Source: a bacterium (GTDB lineage: Bacteria; Patescibacteriota; Minisyncoccia; UBA6257; JAGOQP01). Taken from it: a stretch of DNA of 64,000 nt. Below the pieces are notes generated by a model. That model saw only the letters and a list, made by a program, of their open reading frames with translations. It was not told where the DNA came from and did no database searches. Of the stretch, positions 2,627 through 62,453 are shown piece after piece. How positions within the stretch are numbered: the first letter of the stretch is position 1; each line of letters begins with the position of its first letter. The DNA is taken from positions 8,920-72,919 of the forward strand of contig JAKAHY010000002.1 in the NCBI GenBank assembly GCA_021814695.1, read 5' to 3'. The position numbers and the translations under genes are program-made.

Positions 2627-2672
2627 CTTCTTGTGCAAGGAGTGCTTGCACTACGAAGCCTTGGCGAAGTAG

Positions 2673-2988
2673 TGGAGATGGCGAGAGTTGAACTCGCGTC
2701 CAGAAAGAGGGATTGAAAGCGTCTACGGGCGTATCTTCTTTTGGAAGCTGATTTGCTTTCTGATTGTCCCTACGGATACGAAAGCGCTTTCCGTGGGTAA
2801 GCCTCAAATATAACACCGGCGATTTCCCCATGAGACATCGGGAGCCGATGGCTTACGCACGAACTAAAAAGTTCTTAAGCGTATGCAAGTGCTACATTTC
2901 TGTTAGCAGATTTGTTTTGGCGGATTTACAAGTCGCCGCTTGACCCGCAACTTTCAAAGAACTCTATCTGTCAAAGCCCAGCATCCCC
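2673..2988 (-). ncRNA. ssrA: tmRNA (SsrA)
   Basis: Minus strand: 5' GGGGATGCTGGGCTTTGACAG... and 3' ...GGACGCGAGTTCAACTCTCGCCATCTCCA (T-arm plus acceptor, CCA not encoded). Immediately downstream of smpB. Putative tag ORF GCT AAC AGA AAT GTA GCA CTT GCA TAC GCT TAA, giving ANRNVALAYA. Confidence 0.85.
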
Positions 2989-3426
2989 TTAGGCAATATG
3001 TTTTCTTACTTGGCGCTCGGTTTCCCTTTTTTTAATCGTTTCTCTCTTATCCGTTTTCTTCTTGTGAACGCCCAGTCCTATTTCAAGCTTTATTTTACCG
3101 CGCTTGTTATACAGCTTAAGGGGCACCAGAGTCAAGTTTTTGGATGATGCTTGACCGACAAGAGCGATAATTTCCGACTTTTTTGCCAAAAGTCGGCGCG
3201 ATCGGCGAGGATCGAAATCTTTGGGTGTATTTTTCTCCTGGTAGGGGCCAATTGTTGCGCCAACCAGCCAAAGCTGTCCTCCATAAATTTTAACCAACGA
3301 CCCGACAACACTGGCTTTACCGGAGCGGATAGCTTTAGCCTCATGGCCCAAAAGTTCAATTCCGGCATTTAAAGTGTCGGAAATTTCGTAATCAAAATAG
3401 GCTTTTTTGTTTTGGATTGATTCCAT
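2989..3426 (-). CDS. smpB: SsrA-binding protein SmpB
   Basis: 145 aa; KAYFDYEI...GIELLGHEAKAIR...VPLKLY is a typical SmpB sequence. Confidence 0.95.
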   Translation of the reverse strand: MESIQNKKAYFDYEISDTLNAGIELLGHEAKAIRSGKASVVGSLVKIYGGQLWLVGATIGPYQEKNTPKDFDPRRSRRLLAKKSEIIALVGQASSKNLTLVPLKLYNKRGKIKLEIGLGVHKKKTDKRETIKKRETERQVRKHIA

Positions 3427-3470
3427 CTGTTTATTTATGATAGTGCCTTGTGGGATTTTTTTGCAAGCGA

Positions 3471-3481
3471 TGTGATATAAT
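3471..3481 (+). promoter_or_regulatory. Extended -10 promoter TGTGATATAAT. The same element precedes the genes at 5697, 8397 and 52626, all with short SD-less leaders
   Basis: Identical 11-mer at 3471, 5688, 8367 and 52583; variants at 10652 (ileS) and 18999 (ppsA). Confidence 0.5.
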
Positions 3482-3498
3482 GAAACAAATAAAAAACT

Positions 3499-5643
3499 AT
3501 GAAAAAATCTTCATTAATCGTGGTCATTTTGCTTGTTGTGGCAAGCGTAGGAATGACCGTCATCTTTTCAAATCAAGTGTCGATAAAGGGATTTCTATCG
3601 AGCGTTTATTCTACTGCATCAGGCAGAAATCATATACAGCTGGCAAACGCTCAGTCCTTGGGACAGGGGGTTGTAGTTTTTAAAGCGCAATTTGGCCATT
3701 TGGAAGCAACCGGCCAAGTTGTCTCCGGTATTTCCGGACTAGCGGGGCTGCCGGTGACAAAATTTGTTCCCGACAGAGACCTTTCGGATTCTGAAAAAAA
3801 GCAGGTTGAAGTAAACATCACCGAAGAGAACACCGTTTTCGGATTTATTGTGGCAAAAAACGTTTCATTAGGGCAGGGAATCGGTTTTAACATTCCCCAA
3901 GGAGAAGTTTATAACTACGGTTTTTATGTGAATTCCGACATCCTTCCTCAAGGATGGACATATAACTCTTCTTGCGTAGAGACGGGAGGAAATATTAAAT
4001 TATCTGCCGGCCAACAAAGCGAATGCACGATAGGTTTTTATCTGAAACCAACGCCTGCGCCGGTTACTCCTCCCGCTTCGACGTCCACTCCCGTCTCACC
4101 TCAGGAAGGAGCGTCAGGTACCGTTATTAGTGAAGATTCCGGTTCTGGATCGCTGCAGTTTGTAAAAAATATTTTGGACTTAAGTACGGGGTGGAAAAAC
4201 CCCGGATCGGATAAAATATTGGACGCAAAAATCGTTGAATTATACGGAAAGAAATTTCTTATTGTTTCGACTCAAAACAAACATTTGCTTGTTTACGATG
4301 CTTCAAACCAGTTTTCGCCGGTTCTTTTGAAAGATAATGATTTATCAGGCAGTAACGTGTCGGCGTTTTATCTTGTGGTTTTAGATAATTTCAATTACGT
4401 ATTTGCCTGGGGAGGAAACTCTGCCAACTACGGATCTTTTAAGATTGAACAAGACGGATCTGCGTCTCTGGTAAAAAGTTACAAACCTGACCAATATAGC
4501 GTTACTCAACCGAATTTGGTTTTCGGGTTGTTTAGAGGGTTAGACGGTAAAGCGTATGGATTTGGAGGGAACGGGGGCGATGGATGGCTAACTATTTATG
4601 ACGTGTCCGATCCGGCAAACATCAGCGAAATTGGATCATATCAAGATGGCTTAGTCGGGAATCACTGCGGCAATTATGGTCTGATTGGATTGGACAGGCC
4701 GCTTCAATGGAATACTTCTCAACAAGGGAACAAGCTTTATCTGGTAACTCATGCGGACCAGTGCGTCCAGCGGCTGCATACTTCCGGAGACGCCAGAATT
4801 TATATTTTTGACGTTTCTGATCCAAAAAATCCGCAGCTTTCCCATCAATATGAGCTTTCCGGTTCTTTTAACCACATACCTTCGGACGCGACTAAGGCCG
4901 AACAGACATTTCTTTTTGGCGGGATCGCCGACATTGCCGTTGATTCAAATTCGGGTAAGGTTTTTGATTTTTACAGGACGGTTTTTGATTGGCAGGGGCC
5001 ATCCTGGTCTCAGATAGCAAACATAGTGCATGGTACTTTGTTTAGATACAGAACCGGACTGGTCACTCTTTCACTGCAATCGGACGGTTCTCTAAAAGAA
5101 TTGTCGCGGGCTTTATTGTGCGAACAAAAGGGCCCAATGTATGATGGTGGCGGTCCGCAATATTATCGATGCGGCGACGTGGATGGAAACGACAAAAATA
5201 CCCAAGGCGGATATGATTATTCGGCAAGAAATTCTCAACAAAATTACAACGGAGTTTTTCTCCTCAGTGGGCCGGGAAATAGCGGTCAGGTGGGCTTACT
5301 AAGGAGTGATAATAGTTTTGTTGTCATTCCCGATACCGCCGGAGAGATGACTAAATTTAAGACGGCTATTAAAGATTCATCTTATTATTCGAATATCTAT
5401 AATCCCGCTATCAATGGTGTTGTGACCCAGGTTGACAGTAAAACATTTGCCATCTATCAATTTGATAGTTATTCGTTAAGCGTCGTTAAGGTTTTGTTGT
5501 CGCAATCTCTTGTGGGGGGATCGAAAAATCCCTCTCCTCCAGTGACCGGAGTTGCGCCTTCGGCAAACGTACCACTAACATCACCCGCATTTTCATTTAA
5601 TGCGCTCCTGAACATCTTCAGAAGGATACTTAACAACTACTAA
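3499..5643 (+). CDS. Secreted/surface LVIVD-repeat (beta-propeller) protein, paralog 1
   Basis: N-terminal signal/TM segment; repeated (Y/I)xDVSDPxNP LVIVD-like motifs; Pro/Ser/Thr linker; conserved C-terminal tail AFSFNALLNIFRRILNNY. Confidence 0.7.
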   Translation: MKKSSLIVVILLVVASVGMTVIFSNQVSIKGFLSSVYSTASGRNHIQLANAQSLGQGVVVFKAQFGHLEATGQVVSGISGLAGLPVTKFVPDRDLSDSEKKQVEVNITEENTVFGFIVAKNVSLGQGIGFNIPQGEVYNYGFYVNSDILPQGWTYNSSCVETGGNIKLSAGQQSECTIGFYLKPTPAPVTPPASTSTPVSPQEGASGTVISEDSGSGSLQFVKNILDLSTGWKNPGSDKILDAKIVELYGKKFLIVSTQNKHLLVYDASNQFSPVLLKDNDLSGSNVSAFYLVVLDNFNYVFAWGGNSANYGSFKIEQDGSASLVKSYKPDQYSVTQPNLVFGLFRGLDGKAYGFGGNGGDGWLTIYDVSDPANISEIGSYQDGLVGNHCGNYGLIGLDRPLQWNTSQQGNKLYLVTHADQCVQRLHTSGDARIYIFDVSDPKNPQLSHQYELSGSFNHIPSDATKAEQTFLFGGIADIAVDSNSGKVFDFYRTVFDWQGPSWSQIANIVHGTLFRYRTGLVTLSLQSDGSLKELSRALLCEQKGPMYDGGGPQYYRCGDVDGNDKNTQGGYDYSARNSQQNYNGVFLLSGPGNSGQVGLLRSDNSFVVIPDTAGEMTKFKTAIKDSSYYSNIYNPAINGVVTQVDSKTFAIYQFDSYSLSVVKVLLSQSLVGGSKNPSPPVTGVAPSANVPLTSPAFSFNALLNIFRRILNNY

Positions 5644-5656
5644 AAATTTAAAATAA

Positions 5657-5686
5657 AGCCCCCTGTAAATACAGGGGGCTTTTTGA
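5657..5686 (+). terminator. Rho-independent terminator
   Basis: AGCCCCCTG-taaata-CAGGGGGCT followed by TTTTT. Confidence 0.6.
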
Positions 5687-5696
5687 ATGTGATATA

Positions 5697-8321
5697 ATGA
5701 AACAAATGAAAAAAACATTACTCATCGGGTTTATTGTGGTCGGCATTGTAAGCTTTTCGGCATTTACCGCGCATGCTCAGTCGGTCAATTATCTTAGTAA
5801 ATTTTTTGCAGATGTCTACGGAGCGTTTTTTGGGAATTCCCAAACGCAAAAAGTTGACGCCCAAACAGTGGGTAATGGAACACTTACTATTCATGCTCAG
5901 ATATGTCAGACGCTCGGGAATTTCGAAAATCCAAGCAGTGCGACCTGTTCTGGTACTCCTCGCGACCCCAATTCTACGGAGTCTCCGTTATTTGTTTATG
6001 ATGTCCAGCGCATAGTTGGGAATGGAGCGAGCGCTCAAGTTACCACAGTTCTTTCAGGTATCGGTCCCGGACAAAGTTATTCGTTACCGGCGAATACTCC
6101 AAACGCTAGTAATAATAACAGAGATGAGTACGTGATTGTGTTTAAGGGGGCACCGACAAATTATTTGTACGTGAGACAAGGAGGAAATTTTGATTTGCCC
6201 TATAAATTTTCAATTTCTTCCGGACAAAATACTCAAGTAAATATTCCTTATGTTATTTATACGGCGATTGAATCAACGGGTCCTGTTGGCACTACTGTTA
6301 CCGCCGATATTGTTGATGGCAATGGAAATTTTGTCAGAGCGCTGACGGCTTCAGAAATTCAATCGGTATCCTTTGACATCCAGCATTCGGTTCCGGCCAC
6401 CGGAGGATATGTCGGATCGCATGCGAACAATTTTGATACTCAAGTTTCTTCGGGAAAATTAAATACTTCATATCAGCTTGCGACCTATGTCCATTCCGGT
6501 TCAATTTTGACAAATATTAAGCCACCATCCGGTTACGTAGTCAGATCAATTAAGCCGGGAACATATTTTGATCCTACTGATGACGTTACTATTCATTTTA
6601 CCAAGTCTCCTGTTTCGTCTCAGGTTCAAAAAGTTGATCAAATGCTCTATGTTCCTAATGGAATTAGCTATGTAAAAAAAATAGCTCAAACATATTCGGA
6701 CAATGAATACAAATATTCGAATCTTGACGTTGATTTATTTGCTTATTATGGAAACAATAATCGTCCTTTTCCCTTGAACTGGACAGTTGCCAAATATTCG
6801 GGAGTTCCTTATTTGTTTATGAATGGAGCAGGAAAGATAGTTATTTATAATATTTCCGATCCTAAAAATCCCAAACAAGTTAGTGAATATGTTCTTTCCG
6901 GTTTGGAAAAATTTAATCAATACAAAGATCGTCAGGGAAATACTTATGGACAGTGTTCTCCTAACCAAGAAGGTACTCATGATTTTATAACTGGAGCCGG
7001 TAAAGTTTTTGCTCTTGATGATTCCCCTTATCTTTTGATTGACATTCAGAGACCGGGTGGGCCAGGCCCTGGAGGGACGGCAGTTTTGTCCTTAGATCCT
7101 TCAACTATGGCCATAACCGCCTATCCTCAATGGACCGAGTGTAACAGTGGTCAAGATACTCCCGGAACCGCTTTCGGAATGTATAAAGGAAGTGACGGAA
7201 ATACTTATTTTATTTCCCAATTCCCGAATAATGCATATGATACGGGTGGAGTAGATACCGGGAATATTGGTATTTACACAATCAATTCTGCTGGTATTGC
7301 CAATAAAGTTGTCGTTCTCAGCGGAATGTCCGGGATTGCTCCGAGTTTGGATTATTCTAATGGAACAATCTCTGTTGTTTCCGTTGGAAGTAAAAAATAT
7401 CTTATTGGTAATGGAAAATCATCTATCGCAAACATAAATTCGACCAGTGCACCAATTTATATTTACGATATTTCCAATCCAAAAAATATAATCAAAATCA
7501 ATCAACAGATCACGGTGTCTACGTCTGGGTCCGGCAGATTAAAAATTGACGAACAAGCCAATCGTATGTATGTTCAGTCATCCATTCCAAATCCTGCCGC
7601 AACATCAACTTCGTACACCATCCCCAAAACATTACCTATTTGGCAGGTATATGACTTGAGTGTTTTGCCCAGTACTCCAAAATTAATTGCTACTTATAAC
7701 AAACCAACCGACCTACTTAATTCAAGTCAAGTGAATGCTGATTTTTCTCAAATTACCAAGAGATTAAATATTGCATCGTCAGGTAATCTTGTGGATATAA
7801 ATAATTCTTCTTTCACTTACGGCGCCTACGGATATTCTTCTTCACTCCAGTTGATAAATGTTTCAAATAATTTAGCTTATATATCACTGTATACAAACGG
7901 AAAAAACCCTTGGGATACGATTGCCAATCAAGCCGGAGTAACGGACGGAAGCGAATACGGGACCAATGCTATTCAATTTATAGTTGACGTGTCCAATGCG
8001 TCCAGTCCCAAAATACTTGGAATGATATTCGGGCATACGGAATATTCTGCTTACGGACTTTCCGCCGGCGGATGGTTTGATGTTCCTCTTTACGGAAGTA
8101 TCTATAACTATAACGGATATATTTACCGAGCCAATTTCCGCATCGCTGATGTATGGAAATTGGGGAATCCTCCGGCCCAAAGTACGGGAGGTGCTGGAAG
8201 TGGGGCTGGTGCGAGCGGCACTGGAACTACCGAAGGAGGATCTGCGCCATCATCAGTTCAATCTCCATTTTCTTTCAGTTCTCTTTTGAAGATATTCCAG
8301 AGAGTGTTTAATAATCAATAA
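5697..8321 (+). CDS. Secreted LVIVD-repeat protein, paralog 2 (874 aa)
   Basis: Signal peptide; IYNISDPKNPK and IYDISNPKNI repeats; Gly/Ser/Thr linker; tail PFSFSSLLKIFQRVFNNQ. The likely start may be the second ATG at 5706, which would make the mRNA leaderless. Confidence 0.65.
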   Translation: MKQMKKTLLIGFIVVGIVSFSAFTAHAQSVNYLSKFFADVYGAFFGNSQTQKVDAQTVGNGTLTIHAQICQTLGNFENPSSATCSGTPRDPNSTESPLFVYDVQRIVGNGASAQVTTVLSGIGPGQSYSLPANTPNASNNNRDEYVIVFKGAPTNYLYVRQGGNFDLPYKFSISSGQNTQVNIPYVIYTAIESTGPVGTTVTADIVDGNGNFVRALTASEIQSVSFDIQHSVPATGGYVGSHANNFDTQVSSGKLNTSYQLATYVHSGSILTNIKPPSGYVVRSIKPGTYFDPTDDVTIHFTKSPVSSQVQKVDQMLYVPNGISYVKKIAQTYSDNEYKYSNLDVDLFAYYGNNNRPFPLNWTVAKYSGVPYLFMNGAGKIVIYNISDPKNPKQVSEYVLSGLEKFNQYKDRQGNTYGQCSPNQEGTHDFITGAGKVFALDDSPYLLIDIQRPGGPGPGGTAVLSLDPSTMAITAYPQWTECNSGQDTPGTAFGMYKGSDGNTYFISQFPNNAYDTGGVDTGNIGIYTINSAGIANKVVVLSGMSGIAPSLDYSNGTISVVSVGSKKYLIGNGKSSIANINSTSAPIYIYDISNPKNIIKINQQITVSTSGSGRLKIDEQANRMYVQSSIPNPAATSTSYTIPKTLPIWQVYDLSVLPSTPKLIATYNKPTDLLNSSQVNADFSQITKRLNIASSGNLVDINNSSFTYGAYGYSSSLQLINVSNNLAYISLYTNGKNPWDTIANQAGVTDGSEYGTNAIQFIVDVSNASSPKILGMIFGHTEYSAYGLSAGGWFDVPLYGSIYNYNGYIYRANFRIADVWKLGNPPAQSTGGAGSGAGASGTGTTEGGSAPSSVQSPFSFSSLLKIFQRVFNNQ

Positions 8322-8330
8322 TAATTTGAA

Positions 8331-8360
8331 ACAATCCCCCTAGCTGGGGGATTTTTTTGC
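8331..8360 (+). terminator. Rho-independent terminator
   Basis: ATCCCCCTAG-CTGGGGGAT followed by TTTTTTT. Confidence 0.6.
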
Positions 8361-8396
8361 AAGCAATGTGATATAATAAAACAAATAAAAATAACC

Positions 8397-10580
8397 ATGA
8401 AAAAATATTCATTAATTGTGATTATCTTACTTGTTGTTGCAAGTATAGGGATTACCGCTATCTTTTCAAGTCAAGTGTCGATAACCGGATTTCTTTTGAG
8501 CGTTTACTCAACTGTTTCGGGGAGCAATCAAATACAGAGAGTAAATGCACAAACGACAGGCCAAGGAACCATATTATTCCAAGGCCAATTCGGTCATCTT
8601 GAATCGACCGGAAAGGTCACTACCGGAATTTCGGGCTTATCCGGACTTCCGGTGATGAAATTTGTTAAAGACCGTGACCTATCTAGCGATGAAAAAAATC
8701 AGATTAGAGTGGATGTTATTGAACATAACACTCCTTTTGAATTTGTAGTTGCAAAAAATATTTCGCTTGGAGAGGGTGTTAATTTTAATATTCCCGTAGG
8801 TTCGACATATAGATATAGTTTTTATGTTCACCCCGACTCGATTCCCTCCGGATGGGTTTATTATTCCGGTTGTTTAGAGACCGATGGGAATGTTTCGGTA
8901 CTGGCCGGTCAGCAAAGTACTTGCAGCATAGGATTTTATTTAAAGCCCGAAACAATCTCACCCCCTCCGGTCACATCAACATCTACGATCACGTCTACTC
9001 CTTCGGTAGGTGTTTCGGGAACTGTTGTCGGTGAAGATGCCAGCGCAGGATCGTTGCAGTTTGTAAAAAACGTTTTGGATTTAAGCTCACAAAGAAAGGG
9101 CATTATTTATGGAGTTTTGGACGCAAGAACCGTTAATTTGTATGGAAAAAATCTTCTGATAGTTGCTAGAGGTGGAGCTTACTCTGCTACCACTCCAACC
9201 TGGCATATGCTTGTTTATGATATAACCGATCCGCTTGCCCCGGTTCTTTTGAAGGATAATGATATGTCCGGAAGTGGCATAATCTATAGTTCTCCAATGA
9301 CCGGTTTGGCAGTGCTTGATGGCTTTAATTATGTATTTGTCCGTGGAAATGTCGGTTACGGTTCGTTTAAAATTAATCAGGACGGAACTGCGTCTCTTGT
9401 GAAAAGCTATAAATATTCTGAAGTTCAGCAGATACAGACAGATTTAATCAGGGGATTGTTCAACGGTCTGGATGGAAATATATACGGCTACGGAGGGTTT
9501 GTGCAGGATGGAGGACTCGTGCTTTATAACGTTTCCGATCCCGCTAATATTATTCAAGTTGGAACGTATACTAATGGTCTTGAACCAGCGATTGCCATCT
9601 ATGGACAAATTGGATTGAATCGCCAGAGCACTTGGGGCGTTGTTAAAGAAGGAGGCAAACTTTATCTTATTGCTCATGCGGACCAGTTGGTTCTGCGCCT
9701 TCATACGGATTATGATGGAATGATTTATGTTTTTGATGTGTCCAATCCGGCAAGTCCGCAGCTTTCACATATCTATAAAATGTCCAGCTCCTTTAATCAC
9801 CTTCCTTCCGATATGACTTCGTATGAGAAGATGTTTCTTTACGGAGGAGAAGCTAATATATCGGTTGATCCAATATCAAATAGAGTATTTGATTTTTACA
9901 GAACGGTTTTTGATTGGCAGGGACCCAATCAGCTTAAGATAAAAGACATTCCTAAAGGAGCCTTGTTTCGTTATAGAAATGGAATAGCCGTTCTTTCAAT
10001 AGGAATCGATGGTTCTTTGAAATCAAGTTCCAGTAACATATTATTGTGCGAAAGAATAGCCATTCAAGATAATGGGACGTCAGGCGAAGATAAATGTGAT
10101 ACAAAGAGTCCCGAAACGGTTGGGGGATATTATAGTTCCAGTCTTTATGGAAACAGGAATCCTCAAGAAAATTATAACGGAGTATTTCTTCTTGGCGACG
10201 TGAATAATGTCGGACATGTAGGGCTGTTAAAAAGCGATGGTAGTTTTGTTATCATACCCGATCCAACCGGAGAAATGCTTAAATTCAAATCTGTCTTGGC
10301 TGACCCGTCGTATTATTCCGATCCTGGTTTTCGTTCGTCTCCAATCAATGGCATTGTCACTCAAGTTGATAGCAAAACCTTTGCAATATTTCAGATTGAT
10401 AATTATTCCATAAGTGTTACAAAGCTAAATCTATCACAATCCATAACGAGCGTAACACAAAAATCTTCGCCACCTACCACAAATGCCCCTAGTTCATTAA
10501 ATACATCATCTCCTACTCAGACTCCATTTTCCTTCAGCTCGCTCCTGAGAATATTTCAGAGGGTGTTCAATAGTCAGTAA
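8397..10580 (+). CDS. Secreted LVIVD-repeat protein, paralog 3 (close duplicate of paralog 1)
   Basis: The N-terminal 100 aa are nearly identical to the 3499 protein; tail PFSFSSLLRIFQRVFNSQ. Confidence 0.7.
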   Translation: MKKYSLIVIILLVVASIGITAIFSSQVSITGFLLSVYSTVSGSNQIQRVNAQTTGQGTILFQGQFGHLESTGKVTTGISGLSGLPVMKFVKDRDLSSDEKNQIRVDVIEHNTPFEFVVAKNISLGEGVNFNIPVGSTYRYSFYVHPDSIPSGWVYYSGCLETDGNVSVLAGQQSTCSIGFYLKPETISPPPVTSTSTITSTPSVGVSGTVVGEDASAGSLQFVKNVLDLSSQRKGIIYGVLDARTVNLYGKNLLIVARGGAYSATTPTWHMLVYDITDPLAPVLLKDNDMSGSGIIYSSPMTGLAVLDGFNYVFVRGNVGYGSFKINQDGTASLVKSYKYSEVQQIQTDLIRGLFNGLDGNIYGYGGFVQDGGLVLYNVSDPANIIQVGTYTNGLEPAIAIYGQIGLNRQSTWGVVKEGGKLYLIAHADQLVLRLHTDYDGMIYVFDVSNPASPQLSHIYKMSSSFNHLPSDMTSYEKMFLYGGEANISVDPISNRVFDFYRTVFDWQGPNQLKIKDIPKGALFRYRNGIAVLSIGIDGSLKSSSSNILLCERIAIQDNGTSGEDKCDTKSPETVGGYYSSSLYGNRNPQENYNGVFLLGDVNNVGHVGLLKSDGSFVIIPDPTGEMLKFKSVLADPSYYSDPGFRSSPINGIVTQVDSKTFAIFQIDNYSISVTKLNLSQSITSVTQKSSPPTTNAPSSLNTSSPTQTPFSFSSLLRIFQRVFNSQ

Positions 10581-10668
10581 AAATTAAAAATAAAATTGCT
10601 CCCATTTTAACGGATGGGGGCTGTTTTTTTATCTTTAAATCTCAAAAAAATTGTGATAAAGTAACTTA

Positions 10669-13600
10669 ATGTTGAGAAATCTTAAACACTTTAATCCGCC
10701 GGAAATTGAGGAAAAAGTTTTACAGCTTTGGAAAGAAAAAGGGATATTTCAAAAAACACTCAAAGTTCCAAAAGGAAAAAAGGCCCTGCCTACCGGCAGG
10801 CAGGCAAAAATATTTCGGTTTTGGGAAGGTCCACCGACAGCCAATGGCCGTCCCGGAATTCATCATATTTTAGCCCGTTCTTTTAAGGACGTTGTTTTGC
10901 GTTTTAAAACGATGCAAGGGTATACGGTTCCCCGTAAGGGTGGTTGGGATACTCATGGATTGCCCGTTGAAATCCAGGTTGAAAAGCAGCTCGGATTTAA
11001 AACAAAAAAAGATATAGAAGATTACGGAATAGCCGCATTCAACCAAAAATGTAAAGAATCAGTCTGGCTTTATCAAAGCGAATGGGAAAAATTGACCGAA
11101 CGCATGGGTTTTTGGCTGGATTTGAAAAATCCTTATGTCACATACCACAAAGATTACATAGAGTCGCTTTGGTGGATCATCAAACAAGTTTGGGATAAAG
11201 GGTTGATGTATCAAGGGCATAAAGTGGTTCCTTGGTGTACTCGCTGCGGGACAGCTCTTTCTTCCCATGAATTGGCTCAAGGATACAAAGAGCTTACCGA
11301 TACTTCTGTTTACATAAAATTTAAACTTCTTCCAAAACAAAAAATCGGTTCTTTTATAACCGATGATAAAACATACATCTTATCCTGGACGACGACTCCT
11401 TGGACTTTGCCCGGAAACGTCGCTTTGGCAGTCGGAAATAAAATCAAATATATTGCGGCAAAAATCGGAGGAGAGACTTTTATTATTGCGGAAGATCTTG
11501 CCGGATCGGTTTTGGGATCGGAAAATCATAAAGTTATCAATGAATTTAAAGGCGAGTCGATTTCAGGGAAAGAATACGCCCCACTTTTTGAAATTGCGGC
11601 ATTAAAAAAACCGGAATCGTACAAGGTATATCCGGCTAAATTTGTGACAACCACCGATGGAACGGGGGTGGTGCACACGGCCGTAATGTACGGAGAGGAC
11701 GATTATAACCTGGGAAAAGAAGTCGGACTTCCTCAGCATCATACGGTTACCGAACAAGGAACTTTCACAAAAGACGTTAAAGGATTTGAAGGGATGTACG
11801 TCAAAGCCAAGGAGACCGAGGATAAGATACTAGATTATCTAAAGAAAAATAATTTCCTTTTGCAAACACAGGCTTATACCCATGAATATCCTCATTGCTG
11901 GAGATGTGGAACTCCGCTTTTGTATTACGCGCGCAGTTCATGGTTTGTAGCGATGTCGAAACTGAAAGATAATCTGATCGAAAGCAACCAGGGAACCAAC
12001 TGGGTTCCGGCACATATCAAAGAGGGCAGATATGGAGAATGGCTCTCCGAAATTAAAGATTGGAATTTTTCACGGGAAAGATATTGGGGCACCCCACTGC
12101 CGATCTGGACGTGCGAGAATTGTGGAAACCATAAAGCTGTTGGAAGTTATAAAGAGCTTTCGGAACATCTTCCTTCTAGTACCAACAGATATATTCTTGT
12201 CCGTCATGGAGAAGCGGGGCAAAATGTTTCCAATATAATCAACTGCGACCCCAAAGATAAGGATAAATACCCGTTAACAACCAATGGAATAATCCAGGCG
12301 AAGAGAACTTCCCTGAGCCTCAAGAAAAAAATAAAAAAAATAGACGCGATTATCTCGTCGGATTTTATTCGGACAAAGGAAACCGCAAAAATTATCGGCG
12401 ATGAATTTGGAATAAAGAAAATAATCACCGATCCGCTTTTGAGGGAAGTTAACATGGGAGATTTTAACGGGGACAATGTTTCTCGTTACCACGAGTACTT
12501 TTCTTCGCTTGAAGAAAAATTTATGAAACGGACCCCTAACGGAGAAAACCTCAGAGATCTGGCCGCAAGAAGCTACGATTTTATACAAAAATGTGAAAAA
12601 AAATACAGCGGGAAAACTATTGTTGTGGTAGGGCATGAATATCCGCTGTGGATGGCGGAGACCGTTCTTTCTGGATGGAGTCAGGAAGAATCGGTGTCGG
12701 AAAAAGAAAAAAGAGGTCCCGATTTTATAGAAGTCGGAGGATTTGATTCCGTTACTTTTGTTCCGGCATCAAGAGATGAACAGGGAATCTGTGATTATCA
12801 TAAGCCATATGTGGATTCAATCAGCATCCCTTGCGAAAAATGCGGAAAAAAGATGAATCGAGTTAAAGAAGTTGCCGACGTATGGTTTGATTCGGGGTCA
12901 ATGCCATTTGCCCAAGATCATTATCCTTTTGAGAAGGGTGATAAAGTCGGGAAAGCGCCCCAATCGTTTCCGGCCGATTATATCTGTGAGGCAGTCGATC
13001 AGACCCGCGGGTGGTTTTACACTCTTATGGCCGTCTCTACATTATTGGATTATGAAACGCCGTATAAAAACGTCGTTTGCCTAGGGCATATAAACGACAA
13101 GCATGGACAGAAAATGTCCAAATCAAAAGGGAACATTGTTGATCCATGGATGATAATAGATAAATATGGCATTGATGCCGTTAGGTGGTATTTTTACACC
13201 GTTAATGCTCCGGGGGAGCCGAAGAATTTTGACGAGAATGAGGTTGCTAAAGTACTGAGAAAATTCAGCATGACTCTTTATAATTCGTTCGCGTTTTTGG
13301 CGCTTTATGGAAAACAGAAGGTAAGTATCCAAAAGAAACCTTCATCGCCGAATATTTTGGACAGGTGGATTTTGGCAAGGCTAAATCAAACAACTGTCGG
13401 AGTTTCGGACAAAATGGACGCATATGATTTCTTGGCTACCGGACAAATAATAGAATCGTTTATTGACGATCTTTCCAGATGGTACATTCGCCGATCGAGA
13501 AAGAGATTCCAAAAAATTTCGGATAAATCGGATTGGGGTACGGCGACCGGTGTTTTGGCGTATGTTTTGGCCGAATTTTCAAAAGTGATCGCTCCCTTTA

Positions 13601-14223
13601 CTCCATTTTTCGCCGAAGCTCTTTACAGATCCATAGCCGAATTTTGTTCGTTTAGCGCAAAAGAATCCGTTCATCTCGAATCATGGCCGGAGGGCAGGGT
13701 TTTTAATGACGATGCGGTTATGTCGGAAGCCATGAAACAGATAAGAGACTACGCCAGTGCTGTTTTGGCAAAAAGAGCCGAAGTTGGAATCAAAGTGCGG
13801 CAGCCTTTGAGCTTGTTGAAAATAAGAAGCATTAAGTCTAAAGAAAAAGACTCTAAACAATTATTAGAAGTGTTAAGGGATGAAGTTAACGTCAAAGAAG
13901 TTGTGATTGATCCAAAAATAGAAAATGAATTTGAGTTGGATATCAACATCACTCCGGAACTTAAAGCCGAAGGAATTTTGAGGGAAATAGCCCGGACAAT
14001 TCAGGAATTGAGACAAAGTTCGGCATGTGTTCCCAAGGATAAAATAGAAGTTCGCATTTCCGGACCTGCCGACATTGAAGCGGTGGTCAAAAACGGACAA
14101 GCCACGCTTTGCCAATACGTTAACGCCAAAAATATTCTTTTCGGTAAGAGCGGTAAATTTGATTCCGAAATTGAAACCAAAATTGATTCGTCAAAAATTT
14201 GGATAGGTTTAAGAAAAATATAA
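10669..14223 (+). CDS. ileS: Isoleucyl-tRNA synthetase (type 2-like) carrying an inserted histidine-phosphatase (PGAM-like) domain
   Basis: HIGH-like GRPGIHH, KMSKS, WCTRCGT and CENCG/CEKCG zinc knuckles. Residues about 505-690 (nt about 12180-12730) contain LVRHGE...VVGHE. Confidence 0.95.
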   Translation: MLRNLKHFNPPEIEEKVLQLWKEKGIFQKTLKVPKGKKALPTGRQAKIFRFWEGPPTANGRPGIHHILARSFKDVVLRFKTMQGYTVPRKGGWDTHGLPVEIQVEKQLGFKTKKDIEDYGIAAFNQKCKESVWLYQSEWEKLTERMGFWLDLKNPYVTYHKDYIESLWWIIKQVWDKGLMYQGHKVVPWCTRCGTALSSHELAQGYKELTDTSVYIKFKLLPKQKIGSFITDDKTYILSWTTTPWTLPGNVALAVGNKIKYIAAKIGGETFIIAEDLAGSVLGSENHKVINEFKGESISGKEYAPLFEIAALKKPESYKVYPAKFVTTTDGTGVVHTAVMYGEDDYNLGKEVGLPQHHTVTEQGTFTKDVKGFEGMYVKAKETEDKILDYLKKNNFLLQTQAYTHEYPHCWRCGTPLLYYARSSWFVAMSKLKDNLIESNQGTNWVPAHIKEGRYGEWLSEIKDWNFSRERYWGTPLPIWTCENCGNHKAVGSYKELSEHLPSSTNRYILVRHGEAGQNVSNIINCDPKDKDKYPLTTNGIIQAKRTSLSLKKKIKKIDAIISSDFIRTKETAKIIGDEFGIKKIITDPLLREVNMGDFNGDNVSRYHEYFSSLEEKFMKRTPNGENLRDLAARSYDFIQKCEKKYSGKTIVVVGHEYPLWMAETVLSGWSQEESVSEKEKRGPDFIEVGGFDSVTFVPASRDEQGICDYHKPYVDSISIPCEKCGKKMNRVKEVADVWFDSGSMPFAQDHYPFEKGDKVGKAPQSFPADYICEAVDQTRGWFYTLMAVSTLLDYETPYKNVVCLGHINDKHGQKMSKSKGNIVDPWMIIDKYGIDAVRWYFYTVNAPGEPKNFDENEVAKVLRKFSMTLYNSFAFLALYGKQKVSIQKKPSSPNILDRWILARLNQTTVGVSDKMDAYDFLATGQIIESFIDDLSRWYIRRSRKRFQKISDKSDWGTATGVLAYVLAEFSKVIAPFTPFFAEALYRSIAEFCSFSAKESVHLESWPEGRVFNDDAVMSEAMKQIRDYASAVLAKRAEVGIKVRQPLSLLKIRSIKSKEKDSKQLLEVLRDEVNVKEVVIDPKIENEFELDINITPELKAEGILREIARTIQELRQSSACVPKDKIEVRISGPADIEAVVKNGQATLCQYVNAKNILFGKSGKFDSEIETKIDSSKIWIGLRKI

Positions 14224-30340: not shown

Positions 30341-30466
30341 TGTTGACGGGGTAGGATGCGGGGTGGTCGAGGGGCTGCAAGCCCCTCGTGTTGGAAATTA
30401 TTCAAAACCGAGGGTTTTGAAGGAGCGAATATAATGAGCGACGTCCGATTTCCCGTTACCCGCTCA
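30341..30466 (+). repeat. tRNA-trailer mini-element copy E1 (ends with a duplicate of the tRNA-Gly(GCC) 3' end)
   Basis: Contains hairpin CGAGGGGC-tgcaa-GCCCCTCG, then tgttggaaatt, then aaaccgagggtttt, ending in tcccgttacccgctca. Confidence 0.6.
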
Positions 30467-30502
30467 AAAACAAAAAGCACCACAAGGGTGTTTTTTGTTT
30501 TC

Positions 30503-30650
30503 TGTCCGCCCGGAAGGGAGTCTCACGTCGCTCCGACATTGCGTCGGAGCTCCCAAGACACCCTCGGTTTCTTGACGCTCCTCCGGAGCTTTTTCCTACA
30601 CGGGAGATTAAGCATCTCCCGACCCCTCTCTATTCAATTCCTTGTTGACG
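30503..30650 (-). repeat. tRNA-trailer mini-element copy E2 (minus orientation; ends with a tRNA-Lys 3' end duplicate)
   Basis: Minus strand: aattgaatagagaggggtcgg, hairpin GGAGATGCTTAATCTCC, cgtgtaggaaaaag, cgtcaagaaaccgagggtgtcttggg, then gtgagactCCCTTCCGGGCGGACA. Confidence 0.6.
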
Positions 30651-30689
30651 AACAAAACAAAAAATATTCACAAAGGATATTTCTTATTT

Positions 30690-30826
30690 TGTCCGCCCGG
30701 AAGGGAATCTCACGTCGCTCCGACCTTGCGTCGGAGCTCCTTAAAACCATTCGGTTTTAATATTTCCTCCACGGAAAACCTTCGGTTTCCCGACCCCATC
30801 CGATTTGATTCCTTTACTGACGAATA
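30690..30826 (-). repeat. tRNA-trailer mini-element copy E3 (minus orientation; ends with a tRNA-Lys 3' end duplicate)
   Basis: Minus strand: ggaatcaaatcggatggggtcgg, hairpin GGAAACCgaaGGTTTTCC, gtggaggaaatat, hairpin TAAAACCgaatGGTTTTA, then gtgagattCCCTTCCGGGCGGACA. Confidence 0.6.
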
Positions 30827-43005: not shown

Positions 43006-43053
43006 TTAATATATTTTTGGGCGCGAAGCGCCCTTTTTTGTTACAATAAAATA

Positions 43054-43938
43054 ATGAGAAAAACATTTTATATTATCTTAATCATACTGCCGGTTGTATT
43101 CGCAGTAGCCATTTATTTATTTTCAAGAAGTTCCACTTCAAAAGAAAGCGGATTAAAAATAGCGACGACTATTTTCCCTGTTTTTGACATCGCAAGAAAT
43201 ATTGTTGGCGATAAAATTCAGGTTATTCAGGTAGTTCCTCCGGGAGCCAGTCCGCATACTTTTGAGGTAACTCCCCAAACGGCATTGGAACTGCAAGGCG
43301 TCAAGGCGATATTTAAAATAGGAAATGGGCTTGATGACTGGATTGACGGCGTTGCCCAAAGCGGCGCCCCAAACGCTCGGATTTTTACGCTCTCGCAAGG
43401 AATAGATTTGAGGAAATTTTCAGACGGCAGTGTTGATCCTCACTACTGGCTGGCGTTAAATAATGCGCAAATAATCGCTCAAAATATTTTTCAGGATGTT
43501 TTGGAAATTGATCCTGCCAATAAAGATTATTATCAATCTAATCTGGATGCTTACTTGAAAAAACTTGATACTGCCGACAAAAAGATATCGGCAACTTTGG
43601 CCGACGTTTCTCAAAAAAACATCGCCACTTTCCATGATGCTTGGTATTATTTTGCCCAAAGATATGGACTTAACGTTATCACCGCTTTTGAGCCGTTTCC
43701 CGGAAAAGAACCCACCCCCCAATATCTTTCGCAATTTATAAACGATATAAAAAAATATAATTTGAAAGTTGTTTTTATAGAACCTCAATTTTCGTCTCAA
43801 AGTTTGGAACAAATCGCTAAAGACCAGGGAGTTAATTTGGTCTTAATCAATCCGGCTGATGGCGGAGCTTCGGGAAATGACGATTTGATAACGCTGCTTG
43901 AAAATGATGCTCAAATAATGGCTTCCGTGCTAAAATAG
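43054..43938 (+). CDS. znuA: Zinc/manganese ABC transporter substrate-binding protein
   Basis: IATTIFPVFDIARNIVGD...PGASPHTFE...DPHYWL. Confidence 0.85.
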   Translation: MRKTFYIILIILPVVFAVAIYLFSRSSTSKESGLKIATTIFPVFDIARNIVGDKIQVIQVVPPGASPHTFEVTPQTALELQGVKAIFKIGNGLDDWIDGVAQSGAPNARIFTLSQGIDLRKFSDGSVDPHYWLALNNAQIIAQNIFQDVLEIDPANKDYYQSNLDAYLKKLDTADKKISATLADVSQKNIATFHDAWYYFAQRYGLNVITAFEPFPGKEPTPQYLSQFINDIKKYNLKVVFIEPQFSSQSLEQIAKDQGVNLVLINPADGGASGNDDLITLLENDAQIMASVLK

Positions 43939-47791: not shown

Positions 47792-47839
47792 CTCCGAGCA
47801 TGTCTCGGAGATTTTTTTAATCAAAAAATAATATTTGAA

Positions 47840-47960
47840 AATATCCCGACAAGTGAGGGGATTTTGTATAGTCCTTCTTCGCATAAAGCTTCGAAGGACA
47901 CTTTTCGTCTGGCTTGCACTTCGTAGCTCGCCAGGGCGAAGAAGTGAGCGGGTAAGGGGA
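47840..47960. repeat. Perfect about 121 bp direct repeat, copy 1 (duplicate of the tRNA-Gly(TCC) 3' end plus about 105 nt of trailer)
   Basis: Identical to 48069-48188. Confidence 0.8.
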
Positions 47961-48068
47961 AGTCTTACGCTCACCCCCGACCCCCGCTTAAGAAACCTTC
48001 GGGTTTCTTACGTCCCTATTTTCCAACACGGGGGTTCGCATTCGACTCCCAAACTCACCCACAAAAAA
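47961..48068 (-). repeat. tRNA-trailer mini-element copy E5 (rearranged family member) sitting between the two 121 bp direct repeats
   Basis: Minus strand carries gtgttggaaaatagg, hairpin GACGTAAGAAACC-cgaa-GGTTTCTTAAGC and gggggtcggggg modules. Confidence 0.5.
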
Positions 48069-48188
48069 ATATCCCGACAAGTGAGGGGATTTTGTATAGT
48101 CCTTCTTCGCATAAAGCTTCGAAGGACACTTTTCGTCTGGCTTGCACTTCGTAGCTCGCCAGGGCGAAGAAGTGAGCGGGTAAGGGGA
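48069..48188. repeat. Perfect about 121 bp direct repeat, copy 2 (overlaps the true tRNA-Gly(TCC) 3' end and trailer)
   Basis: Identical to 47840-47960. Confidence 0.8.
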
Positions 48189-48245
48189 GTCGGACCCCTC
48201 TCATCAGCTTGGAAAGCTGAGGTAATACCGATATACGATACCCGC
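48175..48245 (-). tRNA. tRNA-Gly(TCC)
   Basis: Minus strand: GCGGGTATCGTATATCGGTATTACC TCAGC TTTCCAA GCTGA TGAG AGGGG TCCGACT CCCCT TACCCGC T. Same unusual T-loop as tRNA-Gly(GCC). Confidence 0.7.
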
Positions 48246-48307
48246 TTAATGTGAATAAAGGTAACAAATTTTCTTGATTTTTTCAATAACTCAGGTAATC
48301 TGAGCGT

Positions 48308-52479: not shown

Positions 52480-52625
52480 GCGCAAAGCCTTGCTGCGGGA
52501 GTCAGTATACCAAGGGTGGCGGGAATTTTTCCGCCACTTGTTTTTATCGGATGAATTTTGACCTAAGCTATTAAGGCAATAATGTGATATAATAATAACT
52601 TAGGATAATAATTAAAAAAACAAAC

Positions 52626-53384
52626 ATGAGAAACAAATTATTTGTATTATTCGTAGCAGTGGCTCTTGTTTTCGGTGGAATATACTATGCTTTCGCTCAA
52701 GAAAGCGGAGGAGCAAAAGTCCAACTACAAGGACAAGTCGAGACCCAAAACAGTGGGGGAGAAGTCCAGGTTCAGGTCCAATCCCGGAACGAGGTACAAA
52801 GTGGGAATGACAGCGAAAAGAATTCTACCGGCACCGAGTCCGAGATGAACCAGAAAAACGAAATTCAAGGCCAGAATGAGATTAAGGGAGAAAATGAAAT
52901 TGAAGCAACGAGCTCACAGGAAGGAACGAGCAGCGATCAGGAAGTCGAAAAAACCGAGCCGGTAAAAATGGCCGAGCAAACCAGAAGCGAAGTCGCTAAC
53001 GCAGTTCAGGAAATGCTTAGCGTTGCCGACAGAGCCGGAGGAATCGGAAGCGAAATCAAAGTTATTGCACAAGCCCAAAATGAAAATCAGCTGAAAATAG
53101 AAAACAGCATAAAAAATATTGAAGGGCGAAACGGCTTCGTTAAATTTTTGATAGGTCCGGACTACAATGAAGTTGATAATGCCCAAAAGGCCTTGAGCCA
53201 AAACAAGGAACAAATTACCCAACTCAACCAAATTAAGGCTAAAATTACCAATCAGGCCGATCAGCAGGTGTTGGCTAACCAAATCTCCATTCTTGAAAAA
53301 GCCAACGTGAATATTGAAACGTCTCTGAATCAATCGCAAGGAGGTTTTAGTCTTTTTGGCTGGCTGTTTAGGATAGTTAAATAA
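52626..53384 (+). CDS. Secreted low-complexity protein whose C-terminal hydrophobic tail (GGFSLFGWLFRIVK) is reminiscent of the LVIVD-protein tails
   Basis: Signal peptide; TGTGATATAAT promoter at 52583; terminator at about 53395-53435. Confidence 0.45.
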   Translation: MRNKLFVLFVAVALVFGGIYYAFAQESGGAKVQLQGQVETQNSGGEVQVQVQSRNEVQSGNDSEKNSTGTESEMNQKNEIQGQNEIKGENEIEATSSQEGTSSDQEVEKTEPVKMAEQTRSEVANAVQEMLSVADRAGGIGSEIKVIAQAQNENQLKIENSIKNIEGRNGFVKFLIGPDYNEVDNAQKALSQNKEQITQLNQIKAKITNQADQQVLANQISILEKANVNIETSLNQSQGGFSLFGWLFRIVK

Positions 53385-53765
53385 TAGCGAACAAAAAAGC
53401 CGCGAAAGATAAATGTCCGAGCGGCTTTTTGTTTTATCGGCGGGTATTGTAATGAATATATGAAAAATATAATTATAAGCGTTGTTATAACGCCGTTGGT
53501 TGTGGCAGCGGGTTTTTCGCTTGGCAGTATTTTACAAATAAAAACCAAGCGCCGTTTATGATATAAACTCAAAAACTTATCAGACGCCAGAAACGTCATT
53601 TCCGATGGAACTTAAGACGGGGGCAATATCGGATGTGGTACTTTGTCCCAGCAGGTGGGAGTATATGAATACAAATTATATCTGGACAATATTCTCGTGG
53701 AGATTATTCCGTTTCGGGTTAAATAGATTATAATAAGCAAAAGGTCATAAAATTAGAAAAATAAT

Positions 53766-61344: not shown

Positions 61345-61382
61345 ATTAGCCAATAAATATTCGATAAGTTATACTTAAATAT

Positions 61383-62453
61383 ATGACTGACTACAAACAG
61401 AAACTGAACGATCTTTTGTTGATGTGCGCCAAACAAGATGCTTCCGACCTGCATATTGCCGTTGGGCGCCACCCGACTTTGCGTATAGACGGAGCATTGG
61501 TTCCGCTGACAAAAGAATTAATATTGACACCCCAGGATGCCGAAGGCCTTGTTTTGGCTTTATTGACCGAATCTCAGAAGGGCGAACTTGCCTTGAAAAA
61601 ACAAGTCGACTTTTCTTATTCCTATGAAGACAAAGCGCGGTTCAGGGTAAATACTTATTATCAGCGCGGATATATGGCTGCGGCTTTGCGTTTAATTCCG
61701 GCCCAAATCAGAACAATTGAGGAACTTAAATTACCTCCGATACTGCATGATTTTGCCAATCTGTCACAGGGATTCGTGCTTGTTGTGGGTCCGGCGGGAC
61801 ACGGCAAGTCAACGACGCTGGCCGCCGTTTTGGATGAGGTAAACCATAATCGCACGGAACACATTGTCACCATTGAAGATCCGATAGAATATATTTTCGT
61901 TCAGGATAAAAGTATCGTTTCCCAAAGAGAGGTGCGGACCGATGCTATGGATTTTTCGCAGGCATTGAGATCGCTTCTCAGACAGGACCCGGACGTAGTT
62001 ATGATAGGAGAAATGCGCGATACGGAATCTATTGCAACTGCCTTAACCGCAGCCGAAACCGGACACTTGGTTCTTTCAACTCTTCACACCAACTCCGCTT
62101 CTCAAACAATCGACAGAATCATAGACAGCTTTCCGGCCGAACAGCAAAGTCAGATAGCTTCTCAACTTGCGGCAACGCTTGTGGGAATCGTTTCCGAGCG
62201 TCTTATTCCACGAATCGAAGGAGGCCGTGTTCCGACTTGTGAAATTATGATAGCCAATCCGGCCATAAGAAATTTAATTCGGGAAAGAAAAACCTATCAG
62301 ATAGATTTGGTTATAGAAACTAATGCTCAAGAAGGAATGATCACGCTCAATCGTTCGTTGGCGGATTTGGTGCGCCGCAGGGAAATAAGCTTGGAAAATG
62401 CCGAGTTGTACTCTCTCAATCCTTCCGAGTTAAGAATCCTTTTGGAAAAATAA
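61383..62453 (+). CDS. pilT: Twitching-motility retraction ATPase PilT
   Basis: GPAGHGKSTT and LVLSTLHTNSA motifs. Confidence 0.9.
   Translation: MTDYKQKLNDLLLMCAKQDASDLHIAVGRHPTLRIDGALVPLTKELILTPQDAEGLVLALLTESQKGELALKKQVDFSYSYEDKARFRVNTYYQRGYMAAALRLIPAQIRTIEELKLPPILHDFANLSQGFVLVVGPAGHGKSTTLAAVLDEVNHNRTEHIVTIEDPIEYIFVQDKSIVSQREVRTDAMDFSQALRSLLRQDPDVVMIGEMRDTESIATALTAAETGHLVLSTLHTNSASQTIDRIIDSFPAEQQSQIASQLAATLVGIVSERLIPRIEGGRVPTCEIMIANPAIRNLIRERKTYQIDLVIETNAQEGMITLNRSLADLVRRREISLENAELYSLNPSELRILLEK

Follow-up and report, generated by a model that had tools for sequence, protein, structure and literature searches.

The C-terminal signals of the sortase, exosortase, archaeosortase, rhombosortase and type IX secretion (T9SS) systems lie at the extreme C-terminus of exported surface proteins, where they follow a low-complexity linker. 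In Escherichia coli PBP5, a C-terminal amphipathic helix of 18 amino acids holds the protein on the outer face of the inner membrane, and its removal releases the protein (PMC2909392). PBP5 lacking these last 18 residues is soluble, mislocalised and functionally impaired (PMC2909392), and in-plane membrane anchors form an established class (PMC1564421). The LVIVD repeat was defined from cell-surface proteins of archaea and bacteria, first in Methanosarcina acetivorans (PMC2447325). We analysed a stretch of 64,000 nucleotides (called the window; contig JAKAHY010000002.1 of assembly GCA_021814695.1) from a bacterium of the Patescibacteriota, in which three tandem genes for exported propeller proteins each end in a short conserved sequence. 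This amphipathic C-terminal tail has not been described before and is private to its family, a very rare group of propeller proteins whose conserved ends are exchangeable.

The three open reading frames (ORFs) lie on the same (+) strand, encode 714, 871 (874 from an upstream ATG) and 727 amino acids, and form a tandem array that most likely represents three independently transcribed paralogs of a rare exported LVIVD-type beta-propeller family. The genes and their tails are as follows.

3499..5643, + strand: gene 1, 714 aa, subfamily A; LVIVD match of 27.1 bits and a sub-threshold Beta_propel match; 54% identity to gene 3
5587..5640, + strand: tail of gene 1, AFSFNALLNIFRRILNNY, directly before the stop codon; last 16 residues with a hydrophobic moment of 0.65 and a charge of +2
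5706..8321, + strand: gene 2, 871 aa, subfamily B; recognised from its ORF, its orthologs and an AlphaFold2 model
8265..8318, + strand: tail of gene 2, PFSFSSLLKIFQRVFNNQ, directly before the stop codon
8397..10580, + strand: gene 3, 727 aa, subfamily A, a paralog of gene 1; LVIVD match of 21.3 bits
10524..10577, + strand: tail of gene 3, PFSFSSLLRIFQRVFNSQ, directly before the stop codon

The final 17–18 residues encoded by genes 1, 2 and 3 are FSFNALLNIFRRILNNY, FSFSSLLKIFQRVFNNQ and FSFSSLLRIFQRVFNSQ, respectively. In every case the tail stands at the extreme C-terminus and is preceded by a linker rich in Pro, Ser, Thr and Gly (PSTG), which make up 56–72% of the linkers versus 31–35% of the whole proteins and give a stalk of 10–35 residues. 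An earlier description of this DNA, made without database searches (the sequence-only reading), had noted such a linker and a conserved tail of about 18 amino acids in all three proteins, and both are confirmed.

The tail is predicted to form a cationic, Phe-rich amphipathic helix. Specifically, the 17-residue tails of the window have hydrophobic moments of 0.47–0.54 at 100 degrees per residue and 0.24–0.34 at 170 degrees, and the corresponding ranges for all family tails are 0.41–0.72 and 0.10–0.34. Moments that are high at 100 degrees and low at 170 degrees indicate a helical rather than a strand-like tail. Over the last 16 residues, the window proteins have a moment of 0.58–0.65, a mean hydrophobicity of about 0, a net charge of +2 and no acidic residue, and of all exported proteins in the window, these three have the most amphipathic ends. 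The family tails carry net charges of +2 to +4, with a single Asp among 15 tails. In these 15 sequences, F1, F3, L6, L7, I9, F10, I13 and position 14 are nearly invariant hydrophobics that occupy heptad positions a, d, e and g, a wide apolar face of Phe, Leu and Ile. The polar face carries Lys or Arg at positions 11, 12 and 16, Asn at positions 8 and 15, and otherwise Ser, Asn, Gln, Lys or Arg, with Ser2 invariant. AlphaFold2 places both modelled tails (genes 2 and 3) as helices after a disordered linker, at a predicted local distance difference test (pLDDT) score below 50 in the tail. The tails therefore show the features of a C-terminal amphipathic anchor, namely 15–20 residues, a high moment, moderate hydrophobicity and positive charge, with a helix prediction of low confidence.

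We propose that the tail acts as an in-plane membrane-surface anchor on a flexible stalk, in the manner of PBP5, and assign this reading a probability of roughly 45%. The protein would first be exported through the Sec pathway, after which the helix would lie flat within the outer leaflet of the cytoplasmic membrane and tether the protein, while the flexible stalk would let the propeller reach through the wall. Anchoring of the PBP5 type works without a processing enzyme, in keeping with the lack of further cargo and of any conserved partner gene described below. An in-plane anchor best fits the combination of an export segment, a stalk and a cationic Phe-rich helix, in proteins that have no transmembrane stretch at this end and for which neither other cargo nor a partner gene was found.

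The array proteins, which carry a putative Sec-type export signal, are comparable with those bearing the PBP5, PBP6 and DacD anchors in tail length, tail position, hydrophobic moment and scarcity of acidic residues. The moment of the PBP5 anchor, obtained by the same computation, is 0.43. In contrast, there is no homology of sequence or fold, the passenger is a propeller and not a DD-carboxypeptidase, the array proteins have a long PSTG stalk, and their helix is rich in Phe and Asn and includes invariant polar positions. The tail would thus resemble a PBP5-type anchor in mechanism only. If the proposal is true, it describes a simple, enzyme-free way for uncultivated bacteria to show surface proteins on a stalk, and the tail would offer an 18-residue candidate tag for tethering exported proteins.

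Several observations weigh against an in-plane anchor. The conservation of Ser2 (invariant) and of Asn8 and Asn15 (nearly invariant) goes beyond the needs of lipid binding alone and hints at a specific protein contact. The extended tails of relatives (LQxLQQxLFSFQNLLNIFKRI) show a regular 3-4 heptad spacing, with which a coiled coil would be compatible too. The AlphaFold2 models have a mean pLDDT of only 50–54, and less than 50 in the tail itself, and a second anchor would be less needed if the N-terminal hydrophobic segment stays in place as a signal anchor.

The heptad pattern raises the alternative that the tail, together with the LQxLQQ stretch of relatives, is a short coiled coil that bundles propellers or docks them to a lineage-specific surface partner such as an S-layer, the wall or a pilus. 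We consider this oligomerisation or docking role unlikely, although it accounts for some of the data. Hydrophobic residues are spaced 3-4-3-4 over as many as 3.5 heptads in the relatives P0003, L001b, P0013 and P0014, Asn residues fall at f positions, and the invariant Ser2 would find a reason. However, a Pro directly before FSF (two residues upstream of it in gene 1) leaves only about 2.4 heptads, which is too short for a stable coiled coil alone. Moreover, the core is Phe-rich, acidic residues for e/g salt bridges are missing, and no candidate partner is conserved nearby. Deep paralogs within one genome do have tails that are closer than their bodies (88% for genes 2 and 3, 100% for P0013 and P0014), as co-evolution with a shared partner would give, but in at least one case this likeness is due to gene conversion at the DNA level.

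The sequence-only reading had taken the order of signal peptide, propeller, low-complexity linker and conserved tail as the architecture of a C-terminal sorting or anchoring signal, and had suggested that the tail could label cargo for a route of surface attachment or secretion that is not yet characterised. The layout holds and anchoring is plausible, but a sorting signal is unsupported: the searches below found neither unrelated carriers nor a conserved enzyme, and the tail has no transmembrane segment with a basic cluster. Searches for other proteins with the tail and for a co-occurring processing enzyme were among the checks that had been suggested.

A hidden Markov model (HMM) built from eleven tails was run against the 1,353 ORFs of at least 50 amino acids in the window and ten related loci (about 150 kb). 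It retrieved family members only, at 28.7–35.2 bits, and the next best match scored 7.6 bits. A 21-position tail profile was also compared exhaustively, with no word index, with 1.84 billion representative proteins at E ≤ 0.001. This search, which tails scoring below about 36 bits would escape, returned eight matches, all of them family members and all ending at the C-terminus or within two residues of it. No unrelated tail carrier was therefore found in the window, the ten related loci or the 1.84 billion representatives at that threshold, and on the evidence of these searches the tail is private to one rare, deep paralogous family. A profile search of genome contigs, which bears on homologous carriers only, found one locus, on the contig of P0005. 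In metagenome contigs, the tail alignment gave 600 pattern matches, of which none was confirmed, the query being too short for confirmation. A degenerate DNA pattern for FSFxxLLNIF[KR] was uninformative, as it gave at least 120 matches, those inspected were AT-rich and out of frame, and the known JGI loci were not recovered.

All-versus-all BLASTP after removal of tails and N-termini divides the family into two subfamilies. Subfamily A contains genes 1 and 3, P0003, P0014, P0015 and the second gene of locus L001, and subfamily B contains gene 2, P0005–P0010, P0012, P0013 and the fragments P0011 and P0016. The link between A and B is weak (for example, 24% identity over 173 amino acids). As full-length homologs, genes 1 and 3 match each other and one protein of 26% identity, whereas gene 2 has six orthologs that are 61–67% identical in the full-length search and 63–70% identical over their bodies. 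A combined family profile added, among the matches listed, only distant LVIVD proteins, and subfamily B was not re-found. Restriction of the tail to these paralogs, read as simple duplication, had been named as the result that would count against a sorting signal. The restriction is real in substance, as the tail is confined to two deep subfamilies, but 'simple duplication' is too weak a description because the tail is kept between paralogs whose bodies are 0–30% identical.

Known signals do not account for the tail. No sorting-signal model of Pfam or NCBIfam matches the three proteins, even at E ≤ 1, in agreement with the earlier statement that no classical signal is present. For sortases, there is no LPXTG motif and no model match, and the last 18 residues have Lys, Arg, Gln and Asn throughout. 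For PEP-CTERM, PGF-CTERM and GlyGly-CTERM, there is no NCBIfam match at E ≤ 1, the cargo is a single family and no cognate enzyme lies in the sequenced neighbourhoods. The T9SS C-terminal domain (PF18962 or TIGR04183), a beta-sandwich of about 80–100 amino acids, likewise has no match, and the tail has 18 residues and is predicted to be helical. Thus, unlike the sortase-type and T9SS signals, the tail has no signature motif, no transmembrane helix with a basic cluster, no beta-sandwich of about 80 amino acids, no multi-family cargo and no partner enzyme.

The genomic contexts of the family were compared for a shared partner. In L011, a partial gene, an A gene and a B gene stand in this order. 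Four other assemblies carry a lone gene 2 ortholog between an RNase H gene and an IMPDH gene, and GCA_900175155.1 carries two A-type genes between a copper-ATPase cluster and glyA. Across four genomic contexts, no neighbour and no candidate processing enzyme is conserved in the sequenced neighbourhoods. A 163-aa ORF that lies beside the arrays in both L001 and L011 was considered as a partner and rejected, as the two proteins are unrelated and their position is hence a coincidence.

These results make it improbable that the tail is a sorting signal, recognised and perhaps cleaved by an uncharacterised attachment or secretion machine. Such a role would agree with the likeness to sorted surface proteins (export signal, passenger, low-complexity linker and conserved end), with the purifying selection on the tail shown below, and with the fact that distant LVIVD proteins do end in sorting modules (PF18962, the T9SS tail, in P0019 and a choice-of-anchor D module in P0017). 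Against these stand the confinement of the tail to one protein family, the lack of any matching signal model, of a transmembrane segment and of an Arg/Lys cluster, and the failure to find a conserved candidate enzyme in any of the four contexts. Furthermore, the family occurs in a handful of metagenome-assembled genomes, where a dedicated pathway would serve one to five proteins per genome. The negative result drops the candidate 'new sorting pathway', for which neither other cargo nor a partner enzyme was found.

The history of the tail is consistent with selection on its amino acid sequence. Of the final 20 codons of genes 2 and 3, 17 specify identical residues, and 10 of these 17 show synonymous differences; the terminators that follow the two genes are unrelated in sequence. 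These differences indicate that purifying selection acts on the peptide in the window, and they rule out recent gene conversion as the origin of the window tails. Among paralogs, tails are 50–100% identical versus 0–30% for bodies (the exception is the L001 pair, with 38% for the tail and 26% for the body), whereas among orthologs tail (50–65%) and body (63–70%) change at a roughly equal pace. This pattern is as expected for a biophysical rather than a strictly sequence-specific constraint.

Locus L011 shows another process. There, positions 3324–3458 and 5622–5756, which belong to an A gene and a B gene, are 97% identical over 135 nucleotides that comprise the last roughly 94 nucleotides of coding sequence, the stop codon and the terminator, and the bodies of the same two genes give no BLASTP match. 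A promoter and start block of 48 nucleotides (1147–1194 versus 3451–3498) is 96% identical. By their sequence, these sharp-edged tracts are recent gene conversion that homogenises the tail. The 5′ module (promoter and signal peptide) and the 3′ module (tail and terminator) would double as homology blocks, by way of which paralogs would swap ends through gene conversion.

Multigene surface families with conserved ends and variable bodies include the vlp/vsp lipoproteins of Mycoplasma and the sap S-layer genes of Campylobacter fetus. As in those systems, clustered paralogs here share promoter and signal-peptide blocks as well as terminal blocks, with gene conversion between divergent members. 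In contrast to them, no invertible promoter, phase-variable repeat or silent cassette is seen here, and the three genes have complete promoters and terminators. A rare family with conserved ends and swapped bodies is a compact example of concerted evolution in surface-protein arrays.

It is doubtful, though, that recombination explains the tail itself, that is, that unequal crossing-over or gene conversion, with the blocks of tail, terminator, promoter and signal peptide serving as homology arms, shuffles and evens out a variable surface-protein array while the function of the peptide is slight. The two L011 tracts, found between genes with unmatched bodies, would be explained in this way, as would the promoter blocks of the window, which are 94% identical versus 70–76% for the coding repeats, and the different sets of paralogs that the slot between smpB and ileS carries in different genomes. 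Yet the tails of genes 2 and 3 keep 17 of 20 residues despite their synonymous differences and unrelated terminators, and lone orthologs in another context (L007–L010) retain the tail.

We give little credence to a combined scheme in which the tail, as a docking or sorting peptide specific to the lineage, evolves within each genome together with a partner on the cell surface, and the end blocks form a recombination system that shuffles the displayed propeller 'heads' of an ultra-small, possibly host-attached bacterium. If true, it would imply variation of the surface or of host range. In a related reading, the cationic Phe-rich helix would insert into the membrane of a partner cell and not into that of the bacterium itself.

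An unrelated exported protein of the window also has a short, basic C-terminus. This 252-aa protein (ORF 52626–53384, + strand; whole element 52583–53428) has a signal peptide that ends AFA↓QE, an exact TGTGATATAAT extended −10 element (52583–52593) and its own terminator. Its C-terminus, which is hydrophobic or amphipathic and follows a Gly-rich stretch (...SQGGFSLFGWLFRIVK), is not matched by the tail HMM. Short amphipathic C-terminal tails may be a wider anchoring habit in this organism.

The bodies in front of the tail are those of exported beta-rich proteins. All three proteins start with MKK and 18–20 hydrophobic residues, and a putative signal-peptidase site, AxA↓Q[ST], precedes the first beta domain. 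Between the hydrophobic residues and this site, the products of genes 1 and 3 have a further segment, which is amphipathic (VSIxGFLxSVYST). Gene 2 has a canonical AHA↓QS, followed by the related segment NYLSKFFADVYGAFFG and then by VDA↓QT. The order of parts in gene 1 is hydrophobic export segment, amphipathic segment, beta-sandwich, LVIVD-type propeller, PSTG linker and tail, and in gene 2 it is signal peptide, amphipathic segment, two beta-rich domains, a propeller with LVIVD-like blades, a Gly/Ser/Thr linker and tail. The orthologs P0007 and P0008 lack the amphipathic segment, and P0005, P0006 and P0010 combine an N-terminus of the gene 1 type with a body of the gene 2 type. This second N-terminal module (GFLxSVYST or YLSKFFADVYG; 3499–3660, 5706–5860 and 8397–8560 in the window) is swapped between subfamilies across genomes, and it resembles the C-terminal tail in composition.

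Genes 1 and 3 each have one LVIVD repeat (PF08309) above the Pfam gathering threshold of 20.2 bits (27.1 and 21.3 bits), whereas gene 2 has no LVIVD or Beta_propel match in Pfam at E ≤ 1. A regular-expression search finds LVIVD-like blades in gene 2, such as IVIYNISDPKNP and IYIYDISNPKNI, and BLASTP links it weakly to genes 1 and 3. By the Pfam threshold, genes 1 and 3 belong to the LVIVD family, and gene 2 is a distant relative of it and not a member; the earlier label of LVIVD-repeat paralogs thus holds for two of the three genes. Blades of the form hydrophobic-x-hydrophobic-hydrophobic-D-[IV]-S-[DN]-P-x-x-P in exported proteins are shared with LVIVD and Beta_propel proteins (PF08309, PF09826; PMC2447325), and the family profile built here reaches such proteins. 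The distant LVIVD and Beta_propel relatives are 24–31% identical over 12–32% of the query and bear other C-terminal modules, as in P0019 and P0017 above. The description of the LVIVD family includes neither the N-terminal beta-sandwich domains of the present proteins nor their second, amphipathic segment near the N-terminus nor their tail.

The AlphaFold2 models of genes 2 and 3, which are too weak for detailed conclusions, show one or more beta-sandwich domains and a propeller-like series of units with four strands each, after which a disordered linker leads to the terminal helix, all at low confidence. The gene 3 model (mean pLDDT 50.5) has a transmembrane helix at residues 2–22, a helix at 29–41, beta domains and a C-terminal helix at 713–725. 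The gene 2 model (mean pLDDT 54.0) has a continuous N-terminal helix at 4–41, beta domains and a propeller-like part. A Foldseek search with the gene 2 model returned only beta-propellers, with the SBP56 homolog 2ECE first and TM-scores of at most 0.47, and a sequence search of the PDB found no relative.

Each gene has its own promoter and its own terminator, and the three genes therefore look like separate transcription units. The elements are as follows.

3449..3495, + strand: promoter block of gene 1, with a T-run and GCAAGCGA, the extended −10 element TGTGATATAAT (3471–3481) and an A-rich 17-nt leader that has no Shine-Dalgarno sequence
5655..5687, + strand: terminator hairpin after gene 1, GCCCCCTG..CAGGGGGC followed by TTTTT; 12-pair stem, −23.2 kcal/mol, z −6.3
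5686..5705, + strand: promoter of gene 2, with the extended −10 element TGTGATATAAT (5688–5698) 7 nt from the ATG at 5706
8333..8360, + strand: terminator hairpin after gene 2; −15.5 kcal/mol, z −3.2; the T-run extends into the upstream end of the promoter block of gene 3
8345..8391, + strand: promoter block of gene 3, with GCAAGCAA, the extended −10 element TGTGATATAAT (8367–8377) and a 19-nt A-rich leader
10598..10630, + strand: terminator hairpin after gene 3; −16.1 kcal/mol, z −3.9; upstream of a leaderless-looking ileS promoter

The 20-mer TGTGATATAATRAAACAAAT, which includes a perfect extended −10 element (TGnTATAAT), has three exact copies in the 64-kb window, one before each gene, where 0.01 would be expected by chance. 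The terminator hairpins are GC-rich and followed by a T-run, and no shuffled sequence folded equally well. A promoter motif shared by the three genes, and a terminator that makes each an independent unit, had both been claimed by the sequence-only reading, and both claims stand. The GCAAGCRA element, also claimed for all three, is present ahead of the motif at genes 1 and 3 and missing at gene 2. It is part of a block that, with the T-run, is 94% identical over 47 nucleotides between genes 1 and 3 (3449–3495 versus 8345–8391), above the 70–76% of the coding repeats of the two genes. An apparent relic half-terminator, GGGATTTTTTT, lies within the promoter block of gene 1 and is found in L012 too, and its presence upstream of gene 1 suggests that the duplication unit took in the intergenic junction. 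The TGTGATATAAT promoter is kept in L011 and L012, and more distant loci have TGnTATAAT at 7–9 nt from the ATG.

Gene 2 had earlier been given a start at 5697. This ATG falls within the TATAAT hexamer (5693–5698), and the start is instead placed at 5706, where public gene calls on identical contigs give 871 amino acids and the ATG lines up with the MKK at the beginning of genes 1 and 3. The gene 2 mRNA is probably leaderless, because this ATG is only 7 nt from the −10 box. The −10 box is 17 nt from the ATG in gene 1 and 19 nt in gene 3, spacings that imply leaders of about 10–12 nt.

That the genes are near-leaderless and have no Shine-Dalgarno sequence is correct, as leaders are short or absent, but this is not particular to them. 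An SD-like (Shine-Dalgarno-like) 5-mer occurs at −20 to −4 in 4 of the 49 likely genes of the window, only one of the four being convincing, and this scarcity throughout the genome rules out the missing sequence as a special mark of the array. A TATAAT match of at least five of six positions, ending no more than 12 nt before the start, is found in 14 of the 49, and mRNAs with a very short leader or none appear to be usual for this genome. The ileS gene also looks leaderless, with TGTGATAAAGT, 7 nt and then the ATG (10640–10671), and other TATAAT-like examples lie at 43040–43056 and 61368–61385.

The propeller array is flanked by smpB and the tmRNA gene on one side and by ileS (10669–14223) on the other, as listed here.

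2670..2988, − strand: tmRNA gene (Rfam RF00023, 114.6 bits), directly beside smpB
2989..3426, − strand: smpB, which adjoins the array upstream
10669..14223, + strand: ileS, the downstream neighbour of gene 3

The order smpB, array, ileS is syntenic in the JGI contig L012, where the slot holds two B-type genes. The interval between smpB/tmRNA and ileS is a variable slot for propeller paralogs. The ileS protein has a His_Phos_1 domain inserted in the middle of tRNA-synt_1, as given by precomputed Pfam annotation of the identical protein.

At gathering thresholds, Rfam reports only tRNAs and the tmRNA in the window. Elsewhere, GC-rich stretches at 47835–48254, 1789–2200 and 30356–30760 yield spurious overlapping ORFs on both strands. 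One such stretch holds a unit of about 40 codons twice (KISRQVRGFCIVLLRIKLRRTLFVWLALRSSPGRRSERVRG) and adjoins a tRNA gene (48175–48245). These GC-rich stretches may be repeated structured-RNA or tRNA-associated elements.

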